Below, in pieces: positions 3,113 to 60,053 of a stretch of 64,000 nt of DNA. The stretch's first letter is position 1, and every line of letters starts with the position of its first letter. The stretch is from assembly GCF_053078305.1 (NCBI RefSeq), contig NZ_CP166879.1. One strand, written 5' to 3'. A program made the position numbers and the translations under genes. The notes below the pieces were generated by a model. It ran no database searches, was not told the DNA's origin, and saw nothing but the letters and a program-made list of their open reading frames with translations.

Positions 3113-4387
3113 ATGATACCTATGAAAAACTATCTTTTCCAGACACCCGAAGATATTTGTGTACAGTTAAAAAAAATGACACATCCTGTCACAATAAGAA
3201 CAACAGATATTGCTAATTTCTGGCACTATCTTGAGTCAGCAACACTTCCAGTGATCACAAAAAGCACCACTACAGAAAATCGGGAGGTTACATTTCTGTG
3301 GCGCTCAGAGAAAGCACTGCAAGGCGTATATCTTCGCCTGAATCGTGTAACAGATAAAAAAGACGTCAAAAAAGGACTAATGACTCATATCCCTTCGACA
3401 GATATCTGGATGCTGACACTGGTGTTACCAGCTTCATATCGGGGCTCATACTCATTTATAGAAATTCCCACAGATATGACACAAAAAGACATATTTCAAC
3501 TAGGAAGTCGCTTCTCTCCATTACCCGGTAAATCTGATCCATTTAACAAAACAGCAGAAATAAATATACGAGGATTCGGAGAATCAGTCCTTTCTCTTGA
3601 TATGGCTCCTGAACAAAAGGAATGGGATGATACTTCCCATAAATGTACAGGTATTCTTTCAACATTACATTCCTTTGTTGCAGGATATCAACGCCGGATT
3701 CGTTTATATTTTCCCCTGAATCCAACATCAGTACCTCTTGGATTACTTGTGTTACCTGATGCTGAAACATGGTTTGACCGGATAGATATTACCCGGGCAT
3801 TAGATATGGCCATCACCACTGGTCGTATCACGCCAATGGCAATTATGGGGATAGACAATATTAATGAATCTGATCGTATGAATATACTGGGAGGCAATAA
3901 AGAACTCATCTTTGATATAGCGGAAAATCTGATACCCCAGTTATACAGAGACTATCCGGATATCGTATGGGCTGGTCGCTCTAATACTGTACTGGCCGGG
4001 CAGAGCCTCGGTGGAGTGACAGCACTGATGGCAGCTATATATGCGTCGACAACATTTGGTACAATCATTAGTCACTCACCTTCAATGTGGTGGAACCCTG
4101 ACCAGGGCAGCCCGATCTTGTTTACTGAGAATAATACCTCCTGGGTAAGTGAGCAGATACTTTCAGCGCCTCCGAAAGATGTAAATATTCGACTTGGAGT
4201 CGGTTCTTTAGAAGGTACAACCGTCTCACATGTTCAGCGATTGCATCATTCGTTAATCGCAGCTGGTTTGGAAAGTAACCTCACTGTCTATACCGGTGGT
4301 CACGATTATGCTTGGTGGCGCGGAGCAATTATTGATGAATTAGCAAATTATAATTGCAGGAAGGTATCAAATAATAACTCTGTGTAA
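3113..4387 (+). CDS. mchS1: Enterobactin/salmochelin esterase (Fes/IroD-like), MchS1-type
   Basis: 424 aa with GQSLGG serine-hydrolase motif; sits between microcin genes and the IroB-like glycosyltransferase. Confidence 0.75.
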   Translation: MIPMKNYLFQTPEDICVQLKKMTHPVTIRTTDIANFWHYLESATLPVITKSTTTENREVTFLWRSEKALQGVYLRLNRVTDKKDVKKGLMTHIPSTDIWMLTLVLPASYRGSYSFIEIPTDMTQKDIFQLGSRFSPLPGKSDPFNKTAEINIRGFGESVLSLDMAPEQKEWDDTSHKCTGILSTLHSFVAGYQRRIRLYFPLNPTSVPLGLLVLPDAETWFDRIDITRALDMAITTGRITPMAIMGIDNINESDRMNILGGNKELIFDIAENLIPQLYRDYPDIVWAGRSNTVLAGQSLGGVTALMAAIYASTTFGTIISHSPSMWWNPDQGSPILFTENNTSWVSEQILSAPPKDVNIRLGVGSLEGTTVSHVQRLHHSLIAAGLESNLTVYTGGHDYAWWRGAIIDELANYNCRKVSNNNSV

Positions 4388-11372: not shown

Positions 11373-11579
11373 ATGATCACCCCAGTTTCACTGATGGATG
11401 ACCAGATGGTCGACATGGCATTTATCACTCAACTGACCGGCCTGACCGATAAGTGGTTTTACAAACTCATCAAGGATGGTGACTTTCCTGCGCCCATCAA
11501 AATGGGCCGCAGCTCCCGATGGCTGAAAAGCGAAGTGGAAGCCTGGCTGCAGGCGCGTATTGCACAGTCCCGTCCGTAA
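11373..11579 (+). CDS. alpA: AlpA-family transcriptional regulator, copy 2
   Basis: 68 aa from MITPVSLMDDQ...; TDKWFYKLIKDGDFPAPIKMGRSSRWLKSEVEAW; GGAGG Shine-Dalgarno. Confidence 0.8.
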   Translation: MITPVSLMDDQMVDMAFITQLTGLTDKWFYKLIKDGDFPAPIKMGRSSRWLKSEVEAWLQARIAQSRP

Positions 11580-12589: not shown

Positions 12590-14074
12590 TTACTTCGCTC
12601 TCAGCTTATTGTAGTGATAACCCGAGGTAAAAATACCAGAGACATCAGACAACTTTAAACTGGCTATCTGGGGAAGCAGAACATACATGGTTTTTCCTTC
12701 CGGCACGACAGAAAGCCTGAACTGAGATTCAAGAATGTTCAGCAATGCGTTCAGTTTTTTCCTGTTTCTGAACCGGCCCGGGCCACACTGGAGAATATAA
12801 TTTTTCCTGACACGGGGCGGGCATTCTCCGCGGCACTCCTCAATGAGCCAGTCGAACAGCTCCTCGGCGTCCTTCTGCTGCAGTTCAGATTCATTAGGTA
12901 ACGCAAATAATTTTTTATATTCATCTGTGTACCACGAACTTATTACGACAGCAGACGTCATGATATCGGCAGAGATTTTCCCTTCACCATAGCTGAAATA
13001 CTGAAATAACGCTGCAATTCTTGCAATGTTTTCTGTTTTTTTTGAAACATGTCCCCGAAACGGGCTTAAGGGTCCGGAAGGGGATAAATCCTGCTCCAGA
13101 ACATTATAGTGCTCAATAAATATTTTTTGCGCTTCAGGCGAAAAATGCAGACAATACCGTTCATCCTCACTGGATTTTTCAATACTGCCTCTGGCCAGTT
13201 CCATTAATCGTTCATGAAATGCCGTTAATGATCCTCCCGGAATCACAGCTCCATTAATAAAGCGTTTCCCCTGCGTGGTTGCAGGTTTACTGATAAGACA
13301 ACGGGCAAGAAAACCACTGTCCCTGGCAACAGAACCTTTTCGCTCCATATATCGGTCAAAAAGACCGGGTTGCACCATGAGGGATAACGTCATTCTGGCA
13401 TTTTCAATCATCTGTTCGGGTTCATTCTTTCTGTCCACAGACAATACAGAGCCATCCCACATTTTGTTAATAAAAGGCAACTCAGACAGGGTATATCCAT
13501 CAAATATAATACCGGCTTCATCTGACATAATACCCACTGAACGCCATTTACCACAAAGCTGATTCTTAATTGCCGCAGTCGTGGCATCATTAAAAATGAA
13601 TTTATACCTCACAGGTTCTTCCGCACTGTTTTTCTGAAGTACTTCCAGTTGTCTGAGGGTTTCTGACTCATCCGCGCCTTTGCGGAGTTCTTTATTCAGT
13701 TTTGACAACAATGCTTTTTTCTGAGCCTTTAAAAGCTCTTCCTTGTTTTTCCAGACAGCCAGTTCACTTTTGTATCTGGAATATAACTGCATCTCCTGCT
13801 GGTACAGGGGCTTCATTAATAATTTGTCCACTGCGGTTTTTCGTTCTCCGGACTCGGCAAGCGTCAGGAAAAAAAGAGAGACCGGCCCCCGCAGTGTATT
13901 CAGTCTGCAGACATCAATCAGATTCTGGCAGACAAGTGAAACAGCGCCCAGGGCAGACGCTGCCACAAGCCCAAGGGGAGCCTGCGTAATTTGCTGAGCT
14001 TCAATAACGGCATCACGAATGAGTGGAGGCAGCGAACTCAGGGGAAACTCATCACAAGGCTGACCGAATGACAT
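12590..14074 (-). CDS. YfjI-like protein (DUF3987-type, P4/CP4-like element protein)
   Basis: 494 aa from MSFGQPCDEF... (ATG 14074, GAGG Shine-Dalgarno); family assignment from recall of CP4-57 yfjI. Confidence 0.55.
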   Translation of the reverse strand: MSFGQPCDEFPLSSLPPLIRDAVIEAQQITQAPLGLVAASALGAVSLVCQNLIDVCRLNTLRGPVSLFFLTLAESGERKTAVDKLLMKPLYQQEMQLYSRYKSELAVWKNKEELLKAQKKALLSKLNKELRKGADESETLRQLEVLQKNSAEEPVRYKFIFNDATTAAIKNQLCGKWRSVGIMSDEAGIIFDGYTLSELPFINKMWDGSVLSVDRKNEPEQMIENARMTLSLMVQPGLFDRYMERKGSVARDSGFLARCLISKPATTQGKRFINGAVIPGGSLTAFHERLMELARGSIEKSSEDERYCLHFSPEAQKIFIEHYNVLEQDLSPSGPLSPFRGHVSKKTENIARIAALFQYFSYGEGKISADIMTSAVVISSWYTDEYKKLFALPNESELQQKDAEELFDWLIEECRGECPPRVRKNYILQCGPGRFRNRKKLNALLNILESQFRLSVVPEGKTMYVLLPQIASLKLSDVSGIFTSGYHYNKLRAK

Positions 14075-15303
14075 AGTAACCTCACTACACACAGATATAA
14101 AAGTACTGCAATTCTGGCTATTAATAGCAAAAATAGCAGTCAAATCAATATGAGGTAAAAATTTTTGTTGCTTTAATGGTTAAATAATAACCACAGTGTG
14201 TTTTGCTGCTGAAGAAAGACAAAATGAATCTGTGTGTCCCCTCCTTCCCTTCAGAGCACATCCACTATTCAAATTTTACACAACCACGTACGAACAAAAA
14301 GCATCATCCCGGGTATTGCAGATACCGGTTTCCTGCCGGGAAGAATCATAAACAGAACACCGGGAATAACGCCTTCAGGAATCCCCCCCTCCTGAAGAAG
14401 AATAAAATAAAGAAGACTACAGTTCCTGCACTGAATGCTGAGTACAATATTCTATGGACAGGATGACATATTTATAAATAACAAAAACCATTTAATACTG
14501 ATACATCAATAAAATACTTCCTCCCTGCTGACGCAGATAAAATGCACCATTTTTTCTTCAAATACTTCTGTATAATCGCCAGCCAATGATGAGAATGGAT
14601 TAAAATAACACTTCTTCGACAAACACAAAAACAGCCTTCATTTTACATCATCATCCAGTTTCAGTTAACCCCGGACGAGCGACAGCGTTTCAGTACAGGA
14701 ATTAAAAGCCAGCTTTTGCTCAGTAAAAACACACTCAACTAATAATATCTCAGCAGATATTATCCTGACCAGGACACCTCACATTACTGAATTCTCTTCC
14801 GACAGTATCACTGCACAAATAAAAAAGAACTGGATAAATATTCAGACCGGAAGAATGGTGTCACAAAAGCATTTAATCATTACGCATGACCAGGAAGGGA
14901 AACACTTAACCACATGGTATCAACAGATATCATTACGTGTGCACTCTTATAAAAAACACACAGAAGAAGTAAGATAATTATAAACGTAAATTTAATATCT
15001 CCCACTGACATCTCCCCCACAATACACTGAAAAATACTCACAGCAGTAAACACAGACACACCTGATAATCATGCAGCCGATAAATATTTTCCCCTTTACG
15101 GAGAAATCAGCCTGCTGTTTAACAATAACGGCGTATTTTCATGGAAGGAGATCACCCAGTAACGGATAAGTCCTGATCTCCTTCATGTTAATACGCAACA
15201 ATCCCATCGATTCAAAACAATTTCAGACAGATATTATCTCCGTGAATCCCCCGCCACCTTTCCGGTGCGCGGGGTTTTGTCTTTTTTCACCGGGAATACA
15301 TGT

Positions 15304-16176
15304 ATGAATCCGTCTGATGCCATTGAGGCAATTGAAAAACCGCTCTCCTCCCTGCCTTACTCGCTTTCCCGTCACATCCTGGAACATCTGCGCAAACTCA
15401 CCCGTCACGAACCAGTGATTGGCATTATGGGTAAAAGCGGGGCCGGTAAATCCTCACTCTGTAATGCACTGTTTCAGGGGGAGGTCACCCCGGTCAGTGA
15501 TGTTCACACCGGCACCCGGGAAGTACGGCGCTTCCGTCTGAGTGGCCACGGTCACAGCATGGTTATCACTGACCTGCCCGGGGTGGGCGAGAGCCGGGAC
15601 AGGGATGCAGAGTATGAGGCCCTGTACCGTGACATTCTGCCTGAACTGGACCTGGTACTGTGGCTGATTAAAGCCGATGACCGTGCCCTGTCTGTGGATG
15701 AGTATTTCTGGCGACACATCCTGCACCGGGGACATCAGCGGGTACTGTTTGTGGTGACGCAGGCCGACAAAACGGAGCCCTGCCATGAATGGGATATGGC
15801 CGGTATTCAGCCTTCTCCTGCACAGGCACAGAATATTCGCGAAAAAACGGAGGCGGTATTCCGTCTGTTCCGGCCCGTACATCCGGTTGTGGCCGTATCG
15901 GCCCGCACCGGCTGGGAACTGGATACGCTGGTCAGTGCGCTCATGACAGCGCTTCCCGACCATGCCGCCAGTCCCCTGATGACCCGACTGCAGGACGAGC
16001 TGCGCACGGAATCTGTCCGGTCTCAGGCCCGTGAACAGTTTACCGGTGCGGTGGACCGGATATTTGACACGGCGGAGAGCGTCTGTATTGCCTCTGTTGC
16101 ACGCACGGTTCTGCGTGCCGTCCGTGACTCGGTGGTCTCTGTTGCCCGCGCTGTATGGAACTGGATTTTCTTCTGA
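15304..16176 (+). CDS. yeeP: YeeP/YfjP/YkfA-family GTPase
   Basis: 290 aa; P-loop GIMGKSGAGKSS; directly upstream of flu as in CP4-44. Confidence 0.8.
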   Translation: MNPSDAIEAIEKPLSSLPYSLSRHILEHLRKLTRHEPVIGIMGKSGAGKSSLCNALFQGEVTPVSDVHTGTREVRRFRLSGHGHSMVITDLPGVGESRDRDAEYEALYRDILPELDLVLWLIKADDRALSVDEYFWRHILHRGHQRVLFVVTQADKTEPCHEWDMAGIQPSPAQAQNIREKTEAVFRLFRPVHPVVAVSARTGWELDTLVSALMTALPDHAASPLMTRLQDELRTESVRSQAREQFTGAVDRIFDTAESVCIASVARTVLRAVRDSVVSVARAVWNWIFF

Positions 16177-16295
16177 ACACTCTGCCAGGGGAAATGCCTG
16201 ATTACATTGCGTTAACCAACTGAAAACATGACACAAACCCCTCATCCCCCTCCTGTTTCTCTTGCGTGACCGCTCTGCTGTCAATAGAATAAAAC

Positions 16296-16331
16296 GATCG
16301 ATAAAACAGGTATCGATCGTTACTATCGATC
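16296..16331 (+). promoter_or_regulatory. Ag43 phase-variation switch: three closely spaced GATC (Dam) sites in the OxyR-binding region
   Basis: GATC at 16296, 16315 and 16328, about 220-250 bp upstream of the flu start. Confidence 0.7.
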
Positions 16332-16548
16332 GTTTATAGTGGTTAATGGTCTGCGAAAAGGCAGCTGAATCTCTTCATCATGCAGAACGGAATTGCACAC
16401 AACGGACTGATACTTCTCTGGCGGATGAGAGAGGGGAAGCATTTATGTCCGGGAAAAACCACTTTATCTGACCATGCTGTTTTGTACCTGCCGGTATCCA
16501 CATTTGTGGGTACCGGCTTTTTTATTCACCCTCTGTAAGGAAAAGCTG

Positions 16549-58782: not shown

Positions 58783-59874
58783 ATGCGTTTTCTGCGCCGA
58801 CCAATATCGCTGCGCCAACGGCTGATATTGACCATCGGGGCCATTTTGTTGGTGTTTGAGCTGATCAGCGTCTTCTGGCTATGGCATGAAAGTACCGAGC
58901 AGATTCAGCTGTTTGAGCAGGCGCTACGCGACAATCGCAACAACGATCGCCACATCATGCGTGAGATCCGCGAGGCGGTCGCCAGCCTGATTGTCCCCGG
59001 CGTCTTTATGGTCAGCCTGACGCTATTTATCTGCTATCAGGCGGTACGCCGCATCACCCGCCCGCTGGCGGAGCTGCAAAAAGAGCTGGAAGCGCGCACC
59101 GCCGACAACTTAACGCCCATTGCCATTCACAGCGCCACCCTCGAAATCGAAGCGGTGGTTTCGGCGTTGAACGATCTGGTCAGTCGCCTGACCAGCACGC
59201 TGGATAACGAAAGGTTGTTTACCGCTGACGTCGCGCACGAACTGCGAACGCCACTGGCGGGGGTGCGTTTGCATCTGGAACTGCTGGAGAAAACGCATCA
59301 CATTGATGTAGCACCGTTAGTGGCACGGCTTGATCAGATGATGGAGAGCGTCTCCCAGCTGCTGCAACTGGCGCGTGCCGGACAGTCATTTTCTTCCGGT
59401 AATTATCAACATGTAAAACTGCTGGAAGATGTCATTCTCCCCTCGTATGACGAACTCAGTACCATGCTCGACCAGCGCCAGCAAACCCTGCTATTGCCAG
59501 AGAGCGCCGCCGACATCACCGTTCAGGGTGATGCAACCCTGCTGCGGATGTTATTGCGAAACCTGGTAGAAAACGCCCATCGTTACAGCCCGCAAGGCAG
59601 CAACATTATGATTAAGCTGCAAGAAGATGGCGGAGCGGTCATGGCAGTTGAAGATGAAGGACCAGGTATTGATGAGAGTAAATGCGGGGAGTTGAGTAAA
59701 GCGTTTGTACGAATGGACAGCCGTTATGGCGGGATTGGTCTGGGGTTAAGTATTGTCAGCCGCATTACACAGTTGCATCACGGGCAGTTTTTCCTGCAAA
59801 ACCGGCAAGAGACTTCTGGCACGCGCGCCTGGATACGGCTGAAGAAAGATCAGTACGTGGCAAACCAGATATAA
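58783..59874 (+). CDS. basS: Sensor kinase BasS (PmrB)
   Basis: 363 aa from MRFLRRPISLRQRLILTIGAILLVFELISVFWLWHES... (TTG at 58774 is an alternative start). Confidence 0.9.
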   Translation: MRFLRRPISLRQRLILTIGAILLVFELISVFWLWHESTEQIQLFEQALRDNRNNDRHIMREIREAVASLIVPGVFMVSLTLFICYQAVRRITRPLAELQKELEARTADNLTPIAIHSATLEIEAVVSALNDLVSRLTSTLDNERLFTADVAHELRTPLAGVRLHLELLEKTHHIDVAPLVARLDQMMESVSQLLQLARAGQSFSSGNYQHVKLLEDVILPSYDELSTMLDQRQQTLLLPESAADITVQGDATLLRMLLRNLVENAHRYSPQGSNIMIKLQEDGGAVMAVEDEGPGIDESKCGELSKAFVRMDSRYGGIGLGLSIVSRITQLHHGQFFLQNRQETSGTRAWIRLKKDQYVANQI

Positions 59875-59939
59875 AGAAAGCTGCTGACCACCAGCACGCT
59901 GAACACGGTAGTTAAACTTTCATAAACACGGTTTTTCAT
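59850..59939 (-). CDS. pmrR: Small membrane peptide PmrR
   Basis: 29 aa MKNRVYESLTTVFSVLVVSSFLYIWFATY with GGAGGAGAG Shine-Dalgarno; 3' end overlaps the basS 3' end antisense; found by manual translation. Confidence 0.8.
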   Translation of the reverse strand: MKNRVYESLTTVFSVLVVSSFLYIWFATY

Positions 59940-59941
59940 TG

Positions 59942-59968
59942 CACTCTCCTCCGTTAACCTGGAGGAGA
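59942..59968. terminator. Hairpin between basS and proP (also contains the pmrR Shine-Dalgarno)
   Basis: ctctcctcc gttaacc tggaggagag inverted repeat. Confidence 0.5.
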
Positions 59969-60053
59969 GTATGCGCGTCAGAGATTAAGTGAACCTTAAG
60001 AGTTCAATTGTTGGTCTGATAAGACAGCGTCACATCAGGCCATCCGTTTCAGC

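Follow-up and report, generated by a model that had tools for sequence, protein, structure and literature searches.

A noncoding spacer with a recurrent, predicted promoter module upstream of a yeeP-type GTPase gene in a CP4-44/CP4-57-type island

What is the role of some 1.2 kb of compositionally biased DNA in which no gene can be read? The stretch analysed here (64,000 nucleotides of contig NZ_CP166879.1, assembly GCF_053078305.1; hereafter the window) carries an island of the CP4-44/CP4-57 type, in which a yfjI-family gene on the minus strand and a yeeP/ykfA/yfjP-type GTPase gene on the plus strand are separated by such a gap. An initial annotation had described a G-poor, A/C-rich noncoding stretch at 14144-15303, upstream of a yeeP-like GTPase gene, had offered a regulatory RNA, a long leader or a decayed gene as explanations, and had suggested an Rfam covariance scan and a comparison with K-12 as ways to decide. 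In this study, we argue that the gap is a non-coding spacer, probably with a passive body, whose function would reside at its two gene-proximal ends. The yfjI end would be a short promoter/operator region, and the GTPase end a portable module of about 95 nt, common to all yeeP/ykfA/yfjP paralogues, which includes a predicted promoter resembling a motif of jumbo phages.

A spacer without a gene

The composition reported for the locus stands. On the plus strand, 14144-15303 consists of 35.4% A, 23.4% C, 15.3% G and 25.8% T, with a G fraction at the bottom of the range for 1,160-nt windows of the stretch (lowest value 0.148, start 14101; median 0.241) and a GC content of 38.7%, against a window median of 49.7%. 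The left edge has to be moved: position 14144 came from a reading frame extended to a TTG codon and, because the RefSeq annotation of a genome 99.8% identical to the window places the ATG of its 'YfjI family protein' at 14074, the gap begins at 14075 and runs for 1,229 nt to 15303. The parts on which the following argument depends are these:

14075-14170, minus strand: yfjI-proximal end of the gap, with a Shine-Dalgarno sequence, a candidate promoter (TTGATT-16-TATTAA) and an operator-like palindrome
14105-14140: the operator-like palindrome (inverted repeat I2), core GCTATTAATAGC, then AAAAATAGCA
14171-15130, no strand assigned: spacer body, AT-rich, G-poor on the plus strand, without a gene, in near-neutral drift
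14293-14342, no strand assigned: sole internal conserved block, AACAAAAAGCATCATCCCGGGTATTGCAGATACCGGTTTCCTGCCGGGAA, with 4 of 50 columns variable against 29.5% in the body
14373-14397, plus strand: hairpin with an 8-bp stem (cttcagga/tcctgaag), -10.9 kcal/mol, z = -4.6

At least 80% of the gap is found in 1,761-1,867 of 5,426 complete Escherichia coli genomes, with no annotation under its copies among the matches listed, and these copies form three clades according to their identity to the window: about 99%, 86-89%, and a single representative at 76% (L011). In the complete genomes, the spacer is always joined to this particular yfjI clade, the junction being intact in 1,860 of the 1,908 genomes with any match. 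A scan of genome contigs found YfjI relatives of about 50% identity at 16 loci in other genera, none of them flanked by related noncoding DNA, and a search of IMG/VR with an internal 16-mer of the spacer gave one true match, apparently another E. coli-type copy.

As had been claimed, the gap holds no convincing open reading frame (ORF). The longest start-to-stop frame has 87 codons (14203-14466), and every ORF of at least 20 codons, this one included, meets a stop or a frameshift in one clade or more, so that none is intact across all three; the indels between clades measure 1, 2, 5, 7, 23-28 and 71 nt and are not multiples of three. Six-frame translations of the gap matched no family in Pfam (best E = 0.1) or PHROG. 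A 40-codon ORF at 15185-15307, whose stop overlaps the GTPase ATG, was considered and discarded, as in L011 it has a stop and lacks a start, and in other islands it is replaced.

The slot upstream of the GTPase promoter is variable among islands, holding elsewhere a gene for a protein of 290-383 aa, or the abpAB or rnlAB defence genes. Three barely related hypothetical genes (290-383 aa) fill it on the GTPase strand in variants L007 (1864-3015), L008 (2085-3002) and L009 (2124-2996), and two of the three have their stop codon within the promoter motif (..TCC AGA TAA TTTCAGA..). To judge by these sequences, the slot looks like a cargo hotspot with its right-hand recombination boundary at the -35 region. 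Such varying content, together with short fragments common to the spacer and other islands and a strand skew which is unusual in neutral DNA, would fit an origin of the body by erosion of one or more genes, for instance of former slot cargo. Against this origin, a tblastn search of the spacer with the proteins that fill the slot in other islands returned nothing, the six frames carry no Pfam or PHROG signal, and three clades about 20% apart are all equally ORF-free, which means that any gene decay must be older than the clade split. We therefore hold the eroded gene to be very unlikely, and the earlier proposal of a decayed gene finds no support for the body of about 1 kb. More specific candidates were also rejected. 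The spacer is not recognizable as a decayed copy of the 290-383-aa slot genes, tblastn and blastn giving no similarity beyond the last ~100 nt, and a 107-aa ORF annotated in the ibrAB island, considered as a shared gene, has in common with the gap only a 66-nt palindrome (see below), its ORF call looking spurious.

The body drifts at about the neutral rate. Identity across the gap for the three clade pairs is 0.88, 0.82 and 0.77, not above that of four-fold degenerate sites in the flanking genes (0.87, 0.87 and 0.81 in yfjI; 0.88-0.92 in the GTPase gene), and the only significantly conserved 50-nt windows are 15257-15306 and 14293-14342. The latter (P = 2.3e-4, ~0.006 after correction) contains CCCGG...CCGGG and TTCCTGCCGGGAA, and showed no conserved pairing, no conserved ORF, no convincing promoter and no other E. 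coli copy; a 26-codon frame on its minus strand has mostly replacement substitutions, and a stop in L011. The strand skew is kept in all three clades (GC skew -0.19 to -0.21, AT skew about +0.15), and is not seen in non-homologous gaps that occupy the same slot in other islands. As substitution fluxes in the body are near balance, a test of skew relaxation is uninformative.

Signals of a structured RNA are equally scarce. The Rfam 15 scan at E <= 1 gave no match within 14075-15303, the sliding fold scan of the gap reached only modest z-scores outside two discrete elements near its 3' end, and there are 5 sigma-70-like sites for 3.3 +/- 1.9 expected, that is, no enrichment. With a neutral divergence in addition, the regulatory RNA that had been suggested is not supported for the body. 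The 8-bp stem hairpin, which had been noticed around 14370-14400, is present at 14373-14397, where none of 200 shuffles was as stable; it lacks a U-tract, and in the 86-89% clade it retains six Watson-Crick pairs and one wobble, with no compensatory change.

AT-rich noncoding DNA that adjoins a DUF3987 gene might also be a replication or transfer origin, served by YfjI (primase/helicase-like) or by YagK/YfjJ (inovirus Gp2-like), and the hexamer CAGATA does occur six times, always on the plus strand, for 0.43 expected. Most of these copies are not conserved between clades, however, and their number is within the family-wise range of shuffles; iteron arrays were looked for in the region and none was found, and the YfjI homologues of other genera, ~50% identical, have no related sequence next to them. 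An origin at this place is thus extremely improbable.

In the reading that we favour, the body would play a passive part, as untranslated, AT-rich DNA such as H-NS binds, to judge by its composition. RNA made from its plus strand would be C-rich and G-poor, the composition on which Rho acts, and the spacer may keep the two promoters insulated, both mutually and against transcription that reads in from outside. At its yfjI end, where TAATAGCAAAAATAGCA is invariant across all clades, a putative promoter and operator can be assigned by reading the sequence. Recognizing about 1 kb of the locus as ordinary island spacer DNA removes a false lead.

The GTPase-proximal module and its leader

Comparison with K-12 exposed an element composed of a predicted promoter, a terminator-like hairpin and a U-tract at the 3' end of the flagged region, with the following parts:

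15213-15249, plus strand: predicted GTPase promoter, with a -35-like TTCAAA (15211-15216), a 15-nt spacer and a -10 TATTAT (15232-15237)
15249-15274, plus strand: leader hairpin of 10 bp with one bulge, intrinsic-terminator-like
15275-15287, plus strand: U-tract UUUUGUCUUUUUU, directly after the leader hairpin and before the start codon
15240-15293, plus strand: possible outer helix, CCGUGAA (15240-15246) with UUCAC-CGG (15286-15293), which encloses the hairpin

The last 85-98 nt of the gap recur at 94-99% identity as 9,141 copies in 4,177 of the 5,426 complete genomes, often several to a genome, including islands in which the upstream sequence is unrelated (290-383-aa gene), which places this module among the most widespread unannotated regulatory sequences of E. 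coli. Its boundaries are seen in the alignment of 16 GTPase upstream regions from K-12 and IMG/VR, whose GTPases are 37-60% identical: similarity extends from the -35-like hexamer to the ATG, and upstream of that hexamer the loci are unrelated. The promoter hexamers (15211-15237) are located 67-93 nt upstream of the ATG, and the sequence GTGAA at 15242-15246 is the transcription start predicted from the -10 hexamer. By genomic SELEX, Shimada et al. (2014) reported TTGAAA-15-TATCAT as binding sites of the RNA polymerase sigma-70 holoenzyme upstream of K-12 ykfA and yfjPQ (PMC3946193), and TTCAAA-15-TATTAT of the window is homologous to them by alignment. As a sigma-70 promoter, it has a good -10 (TATTAT), a -35 matching at 4 of 6 positions (TTCAAA) and a spacer of 15 nt, short compared with 16-18 nt; the third position of the -35 varies freely among the homologues, and a sigma-70 consensus scan did not list the site. 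Supplementary tables searched for transcription-start and 3'-end data on K-12 ykfA and yfjP contained none. K-12 MG1655 has a second complete promoter/hairpin/Shine-Dalgarno module at 2775445-2775547 (L010 22446-22548), directly upstream of the ypjI pseudogene in CP4-57, which reaches 82 bits with a covariance model of the K-12-type leader and suggests that ypjI is a truncated GTPase paralogue.

At 15249-15287, a GC stem-loop is immediately followed by a U-tract, the arrangement of an intrinsic terminator or attenuator, and the position of the -10 hexamer would place it downstream of the transcription start. The combination of a GC hairpin and a downstream U-tract is present at this point in every GTPase lineage, with stem sequences that differ between lineages. 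In the K-12-type lineages the stem has 12 bp, with compensatory double changes at 5 of its pairs and 96% of cells paired, a covariation equalled by none of 500 shuffles and by no slid register. Window-type lineages have other stem sequences at the same place; the covariance model built on the K-12 type finds K-12-type leaders and misses that of the window because the stems are too different, and the MAFFT alignment of the window-type leaders is too poorly registered for pair counts. An Rfam scan of other GTPase leaders (ykfA-type and L045-type) gave no match. Elsewhere in the window, at 27641-27711, upstream of a DUF4942 gene, a hairpin, a T-run and a Shine-Dalgarno sequence follow one another; the leader model gives them a non-significant 17.2 bits (E = 0.71), and this element is probably an ordinary inter-gene terminator.

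We propose that the GTPase gene would be transcribed from TTCAAA-15-TATTAT, with a start near 15244, and that the GC hairpin and U-tract should halt most host transcripts after ~40 nt, ahead of a weak ribosome-binding site. The module may control the entry to a long island array comprising the GTPase, Ag43, IrmA, anti-restriction, RadC and CbtA/CbeA-type toxin-antitoxin genes. The hairpin may, in turn, be enclosed by the outer helix, which reaches the weak ribosome-binding region and is present in the minimum-energy fold of almost all of 18 leaders. Pairing of its strands with their own partners averages -8.1 kcal/mol, against -6.3 when partners are swapped, and none of 5,000 permutations was as good, kinship not being controlled in this comparison. 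Since the 5' strand of this helix overlaps the predicted start, its formation may be limited to transcripts arriving from further upstream.

A leader of ~60 nt, as predicted from a conserved GTPase promoter 67-93 nt before the ATG, argues against the long leader that the initial annotation had considered. More generally, the body could encode a trans-acting small RNA, or serve the GTPase or yfjI mRNA as a long 5' leader. Such a transcript could start from a weak sigma-70-like site (14906-14933, plus strand) inside a moderately conserved interval (14891-15009), the terminator at 15249-15287 could end one on the plus strand, the block at 14293-14342 is conserved, and the outer helix implies that some transcripts begin upstream of 15240. 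On the other side, there is no Rfam match, the substitution rate is neutral, promoter-like sites are not enriched, variant L005 has lost the candidate promoter at 14906-14933 by deletion, the body yielded no covarying structure (with three clades, and thus low power), and the conserved GTPase promoter lies downstream of the whole body. All in all, we consider an RNA of this kind improbable.

Some observations sit less easily with a passive body flanked by two functional ends. The block at 14293-14342 is significantly conserved. A length of ~1.2 kb (1,184-1,335 nt) and the strand skew have both been retained through ~20% divergence, and no deletion variant of the spacer occurs among ~1,860 genomes, which is mildly surprising for bacterial junk DNA. 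The published high-affinity H-NS motif (TCGATAAATT, PMC2094087) is not significantly enriched, as the 1.2 kb contain 3 sites with at most 2 mismatches and the whole window has 1.4 per kb. The complementarity of the outer helix suggests that some of the relevant transcripts start upstream of the proposed promoter, and the start site, the termination and the roles of H-NS and Rho are themselves inferred.

Resemblance to a jumbo-phage promoter motif

A search of IMG/VR for the exact spacer, -10 and start pattern of the module returned, besides GTPase leaders, 29 distinct sites in large phage contigs, several per contig and each 40-75 nt upstream of a start codon. By BLAST, the carriers are SPN3US-like jumbo phages, namely Salmonella phage SPN3US, phiEaH2, ChrisDB, Caitlin, the E. 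coli phages Lh1B and EC001, Proteus phage 7 and jumbo phages of Aeromonas. No non-trivial 12-mers recur more often in the first 100 kb of SPN3US than AGATAGATATTA, GATAGATATTAT and TAGATATTATCT, and 13 sites are found on the coding strand ahead of genes in the same orientation. From these 13 sites alone a 37-nt matrix was derived, which gives the GTPase promoter of the window 39.3 bits, within the range of SPN3US's own sites (32-46 bits); the runner-up among sites of the 64 kb has 11.0 bits, and the best of 30 shuffles 17.4. Its 22 flank positions, which were not used in choosing the phage sites, contribute 16.4 bits, a score reached by one of 127,928 window positions, namely the promoter. The distance from motif to start codon is 79 nt in the window, compared with 45-76 nt at the nearest phage sites. 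The match is statistically solid, and the promoter of the window could pass for a copy of the intergenic motif that SPN3US repeats most often. K-12 paralogues obtain 16-24 bits with the same matrix and look closer to variants found in other phage contigs. In metagenomes, a GTPase gene follows the motif in 72 of the first 120 matches listed. No GTPase homologue was found in the phage collection, so that joint inheritance of gene and promoter from these phages is not seen. A literature search for the motif strings yielded no relevant paper, and the resemblance to the SPN3US-like motif is mentioned nowhere that we could find. On the phage side, a stem-loop often follows the motif by 5-50 nt (contigs L071, L074-L077, L081 and L107-L109; SPN3US 4427 and 65413), sometimes with a T-run (L071, L081), a layout that resembles the GTPase leader.

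According to a review, every jumbo phage with RNA polymerases of its own has an AT-rich motif, centred at -10, which marks its early promoters and is read by the virion polymerase (PMC7598289). By extension of this general statement, the SPN3US motif may be an early promoter. If so, the module could be a switch triggered by the phage: silent before infection through a weak sigma-70 promoter, a leader terminator and a sequestered ribosome-binding site, it would fire once an SPN3US-like jumbo phage supplies the polymerase or factor that reads the motif, and the GTPase, perhaps with the downstream Ag43, anti-restriction, RadC and toxin-antitoxin genes, would be expressed as a defence or satellite-like response. 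The ~95-nt module would then be a sensor of jumbo-phage infection, made of a chromosomal copy of a phage early promoter, with different lineages tuned to different phage lineages. Several observations point this way. The match spans all 37 positions, the 22 of the flanks included; variants of the motif in different GTPase lineages match different phages, those in ...GATATTATCTnnGTGA being like SPN3US and phiEaH2 and those in ...TATATATCATnnnnnTGAA like other large phage contigs; the motif is kept across GTPases with no more than 50-60% identity while the sequence upstream is unrelated; the spacing to the start codon is similar to that of phage sites; no GTPase homologue accompanies it in the phage collection; and the early-promoter rule is stated for all polymerase-encoding jumbo phages (PMC7598289).

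Other considerations weaken the idea of such a switch, which is drawn entirely from sequence, the timing class of the SPN3US motif and its polymerase being taken from a review. In nucleus-forming jumbo phages, the polymerases are confined to an early vesicle or to the phage nucleus and have no contact with the host chromosome, a sequestration that would work against the switch. We know of no defence phenotype for these GTPases, and the PADLOC match of the window's GTPase is weak and confined to the GTPase domain. Furthermore, the K-12 homologues are already reported as in vitro targets of the host's sigma-70 polymerase (PMC3946193). Both the switch and the infection sensor that it implies are therefore put forward as tentative possibilities, on balance unlikely.

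Antitermination of the AlpA or Q type offers another view of the same arrangement. At the alpB promoter of Pseudomonas aeruginosa, AlpA loads onto RNA polymerase, which then passes a leader terminator (PMC7969949), and the AlpA-family protein of the island could, by analogy, bind the promoter spacer, load onto the polymerase and carry it past the leader hairpin. An AlpA-family gene is present in the same island (11373-11579), and the architecture is the same, with a conserved spacer between -35 and -10, a terminator in the 5' untranslated region (UTR) and a long co-directional array downstream. The published AlpA-binding motif, GGGACGN5GGTA, is absent from the spacer, though the orthologue differs, and the promoter motif is absent upstream of K-12 intA, a known AlpA target. 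As the motif is multicopy in jumbo phages, an island-specific regulator leaves that part unexplained, and we find this mechanism highly improbable. Two other relationships could also account for the resemblance. A promoter cassette could have been acquired from phages and retained for its additional use by the host polymerase, or the promoters of the window and of the phages could have a host factor in common.

If the resemblance is functional, a host element would in nature be attuned to the private transcription signal of a phage, and would offer an experimental handle on cryptic islands and uncharacterised GTPases. If it reflects descent only, it remains a trace of promoter cassettes that pass between jumbo phages and chromosomal islands.

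Neighbouring elements and known systems

The genes and other elements around the gap and at its 3' end are as follows:

11373-11579: AlpA-family gene (PF05930, E = 8.6e-9)
12590-14074, minus strand: yfjI-family gene (DUF3987), left neighbour, divergent from the gap (Pfam PF13148, E = 1.3e-95)
15131-15196, no strand assigned: near-perfect palindrome of 66 nt, a separate module just upstream of the GTPase promoter (-30 kcal/mol)
15304-16176, plus strand: yeeP/ykfA/yfjP-type GTPase gene, right neighbour (Pfam MMR_HSR1, 8.8e-15)
16294-16530: IS102/isrC RNA (Rfam RF00124), between the GTPase gene and Ag43 (74.6 bits, full length)

From left to right, the island comprises two YagK/YfjJ genes, the AlpA-family gene, a 200-aa ORF, the DUF3987/YfjI gene on the minus strand and the gap, and then the GTPase gene, IS102/isrC, Ag43, IrmA, DUF932, an anti-restriction gene, RadC and others. 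The GTPase is 50-52% identical to K-12 YfjP and YkfA. In its GTPase domain only, it has weak PADLOC matches to LeoBC (E = 1.8e-8) and LeoA (1.8e-5), which are dynamin-like 'Eleos' defence proteins, and in island variant L007 a dynamin-family gene follows the GTPase gene. The initial annotation had placed isrC in the yeeP-flu interval, correctly as the Rfam match shows, but this RNA is outside the region that had been flagged. A full-length match to the enterobacterial small RNA STnc630 is found at 59843-60008 (minus strand, 181.8 bits).

The 66-nt palindrome folds with z = -6.2 on the plus strand and -5.0 on the minus strand, and is missing from the 76% clade. Other copies are found in the ibrAB/PerC island, on plasmid pVir68, at a distance of 50 nt past cdtC, and in phage P-EibC, upstream of eaaC, with the annotation 'stem_loop' by its depositors (L012/L013 3500-3569, L067 2001-2064, L066 1501-1559). 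To all appearances, this is a small hairpin module that lacks a U-tract and is dispersed among unrelated, horizontally acquired contexts. Another palindromic element is part of a 71-nt insertion after window position 14881 in the 86-89% clade (L003 ~3280-3350), with palindrome ATCGATCACGGTTTGGCCAAACCGTGATCGAT and flanking ATCATTACG repeats; a deletion in variant L005 runs between these repeats, and half of the 71-nt element recurs in the ibrAB island (partial copy, L012 2985-3018).

Among known systems, island DNA silenced by H-NS and Rho is, like the gap with its 38.5% GC against about 50% in the window, AT-rich and untranslated, with a C-rich, G-poor plus-strand RNA, and the island of the closest genome also has an Hha-family gene; the gap differs from these in that the high-affinity motif is not enriched. 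IsrC/IS102 of CP4-44 belongs to the same type of island and is an RNA downstream of the GTPase gene, outside the gap. The lambda PR'-tR' unit with Q, and the PalpB-tB unit of P. aeruginosa with AlpA (PMC7969949), share with the module a promoter with a conserved spacer, a terminator in a short 5' UTR and a long operon, a likeness known from sequence alone; unlike them, the window has no matching AlpA-binding motif and no sign of a pause element.

The 'constitutive promoters' of K-12 ykfA and yfjPQ (PMC3946193), the hexamers of which were picked by eye near the binding peak, are like the promoter of the window in position, in sequence and in the layout of hairpin, U-tract and Shine-Dalgarno sequence. 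The window represents a second subfamily, with another hairpin stem and with GTGAA in place of CTGAAC. With the predicted early promoters of jumbo phages, represented by the motif aAAtnaTTTCAGATAGATATTATCTnnGTGA of SPN3US and phiEaH2, it shares a score in the phage range, a similar distance to the start codon and a hairpin that is also frequent in the 5' region of the phage sites. Unlike the phage promoters, the copy in the window is carried by a bacterial island, occurs once per island, precedes a host-type GTPase gene and is followed by a terminator-like hairpin and a U-tract.

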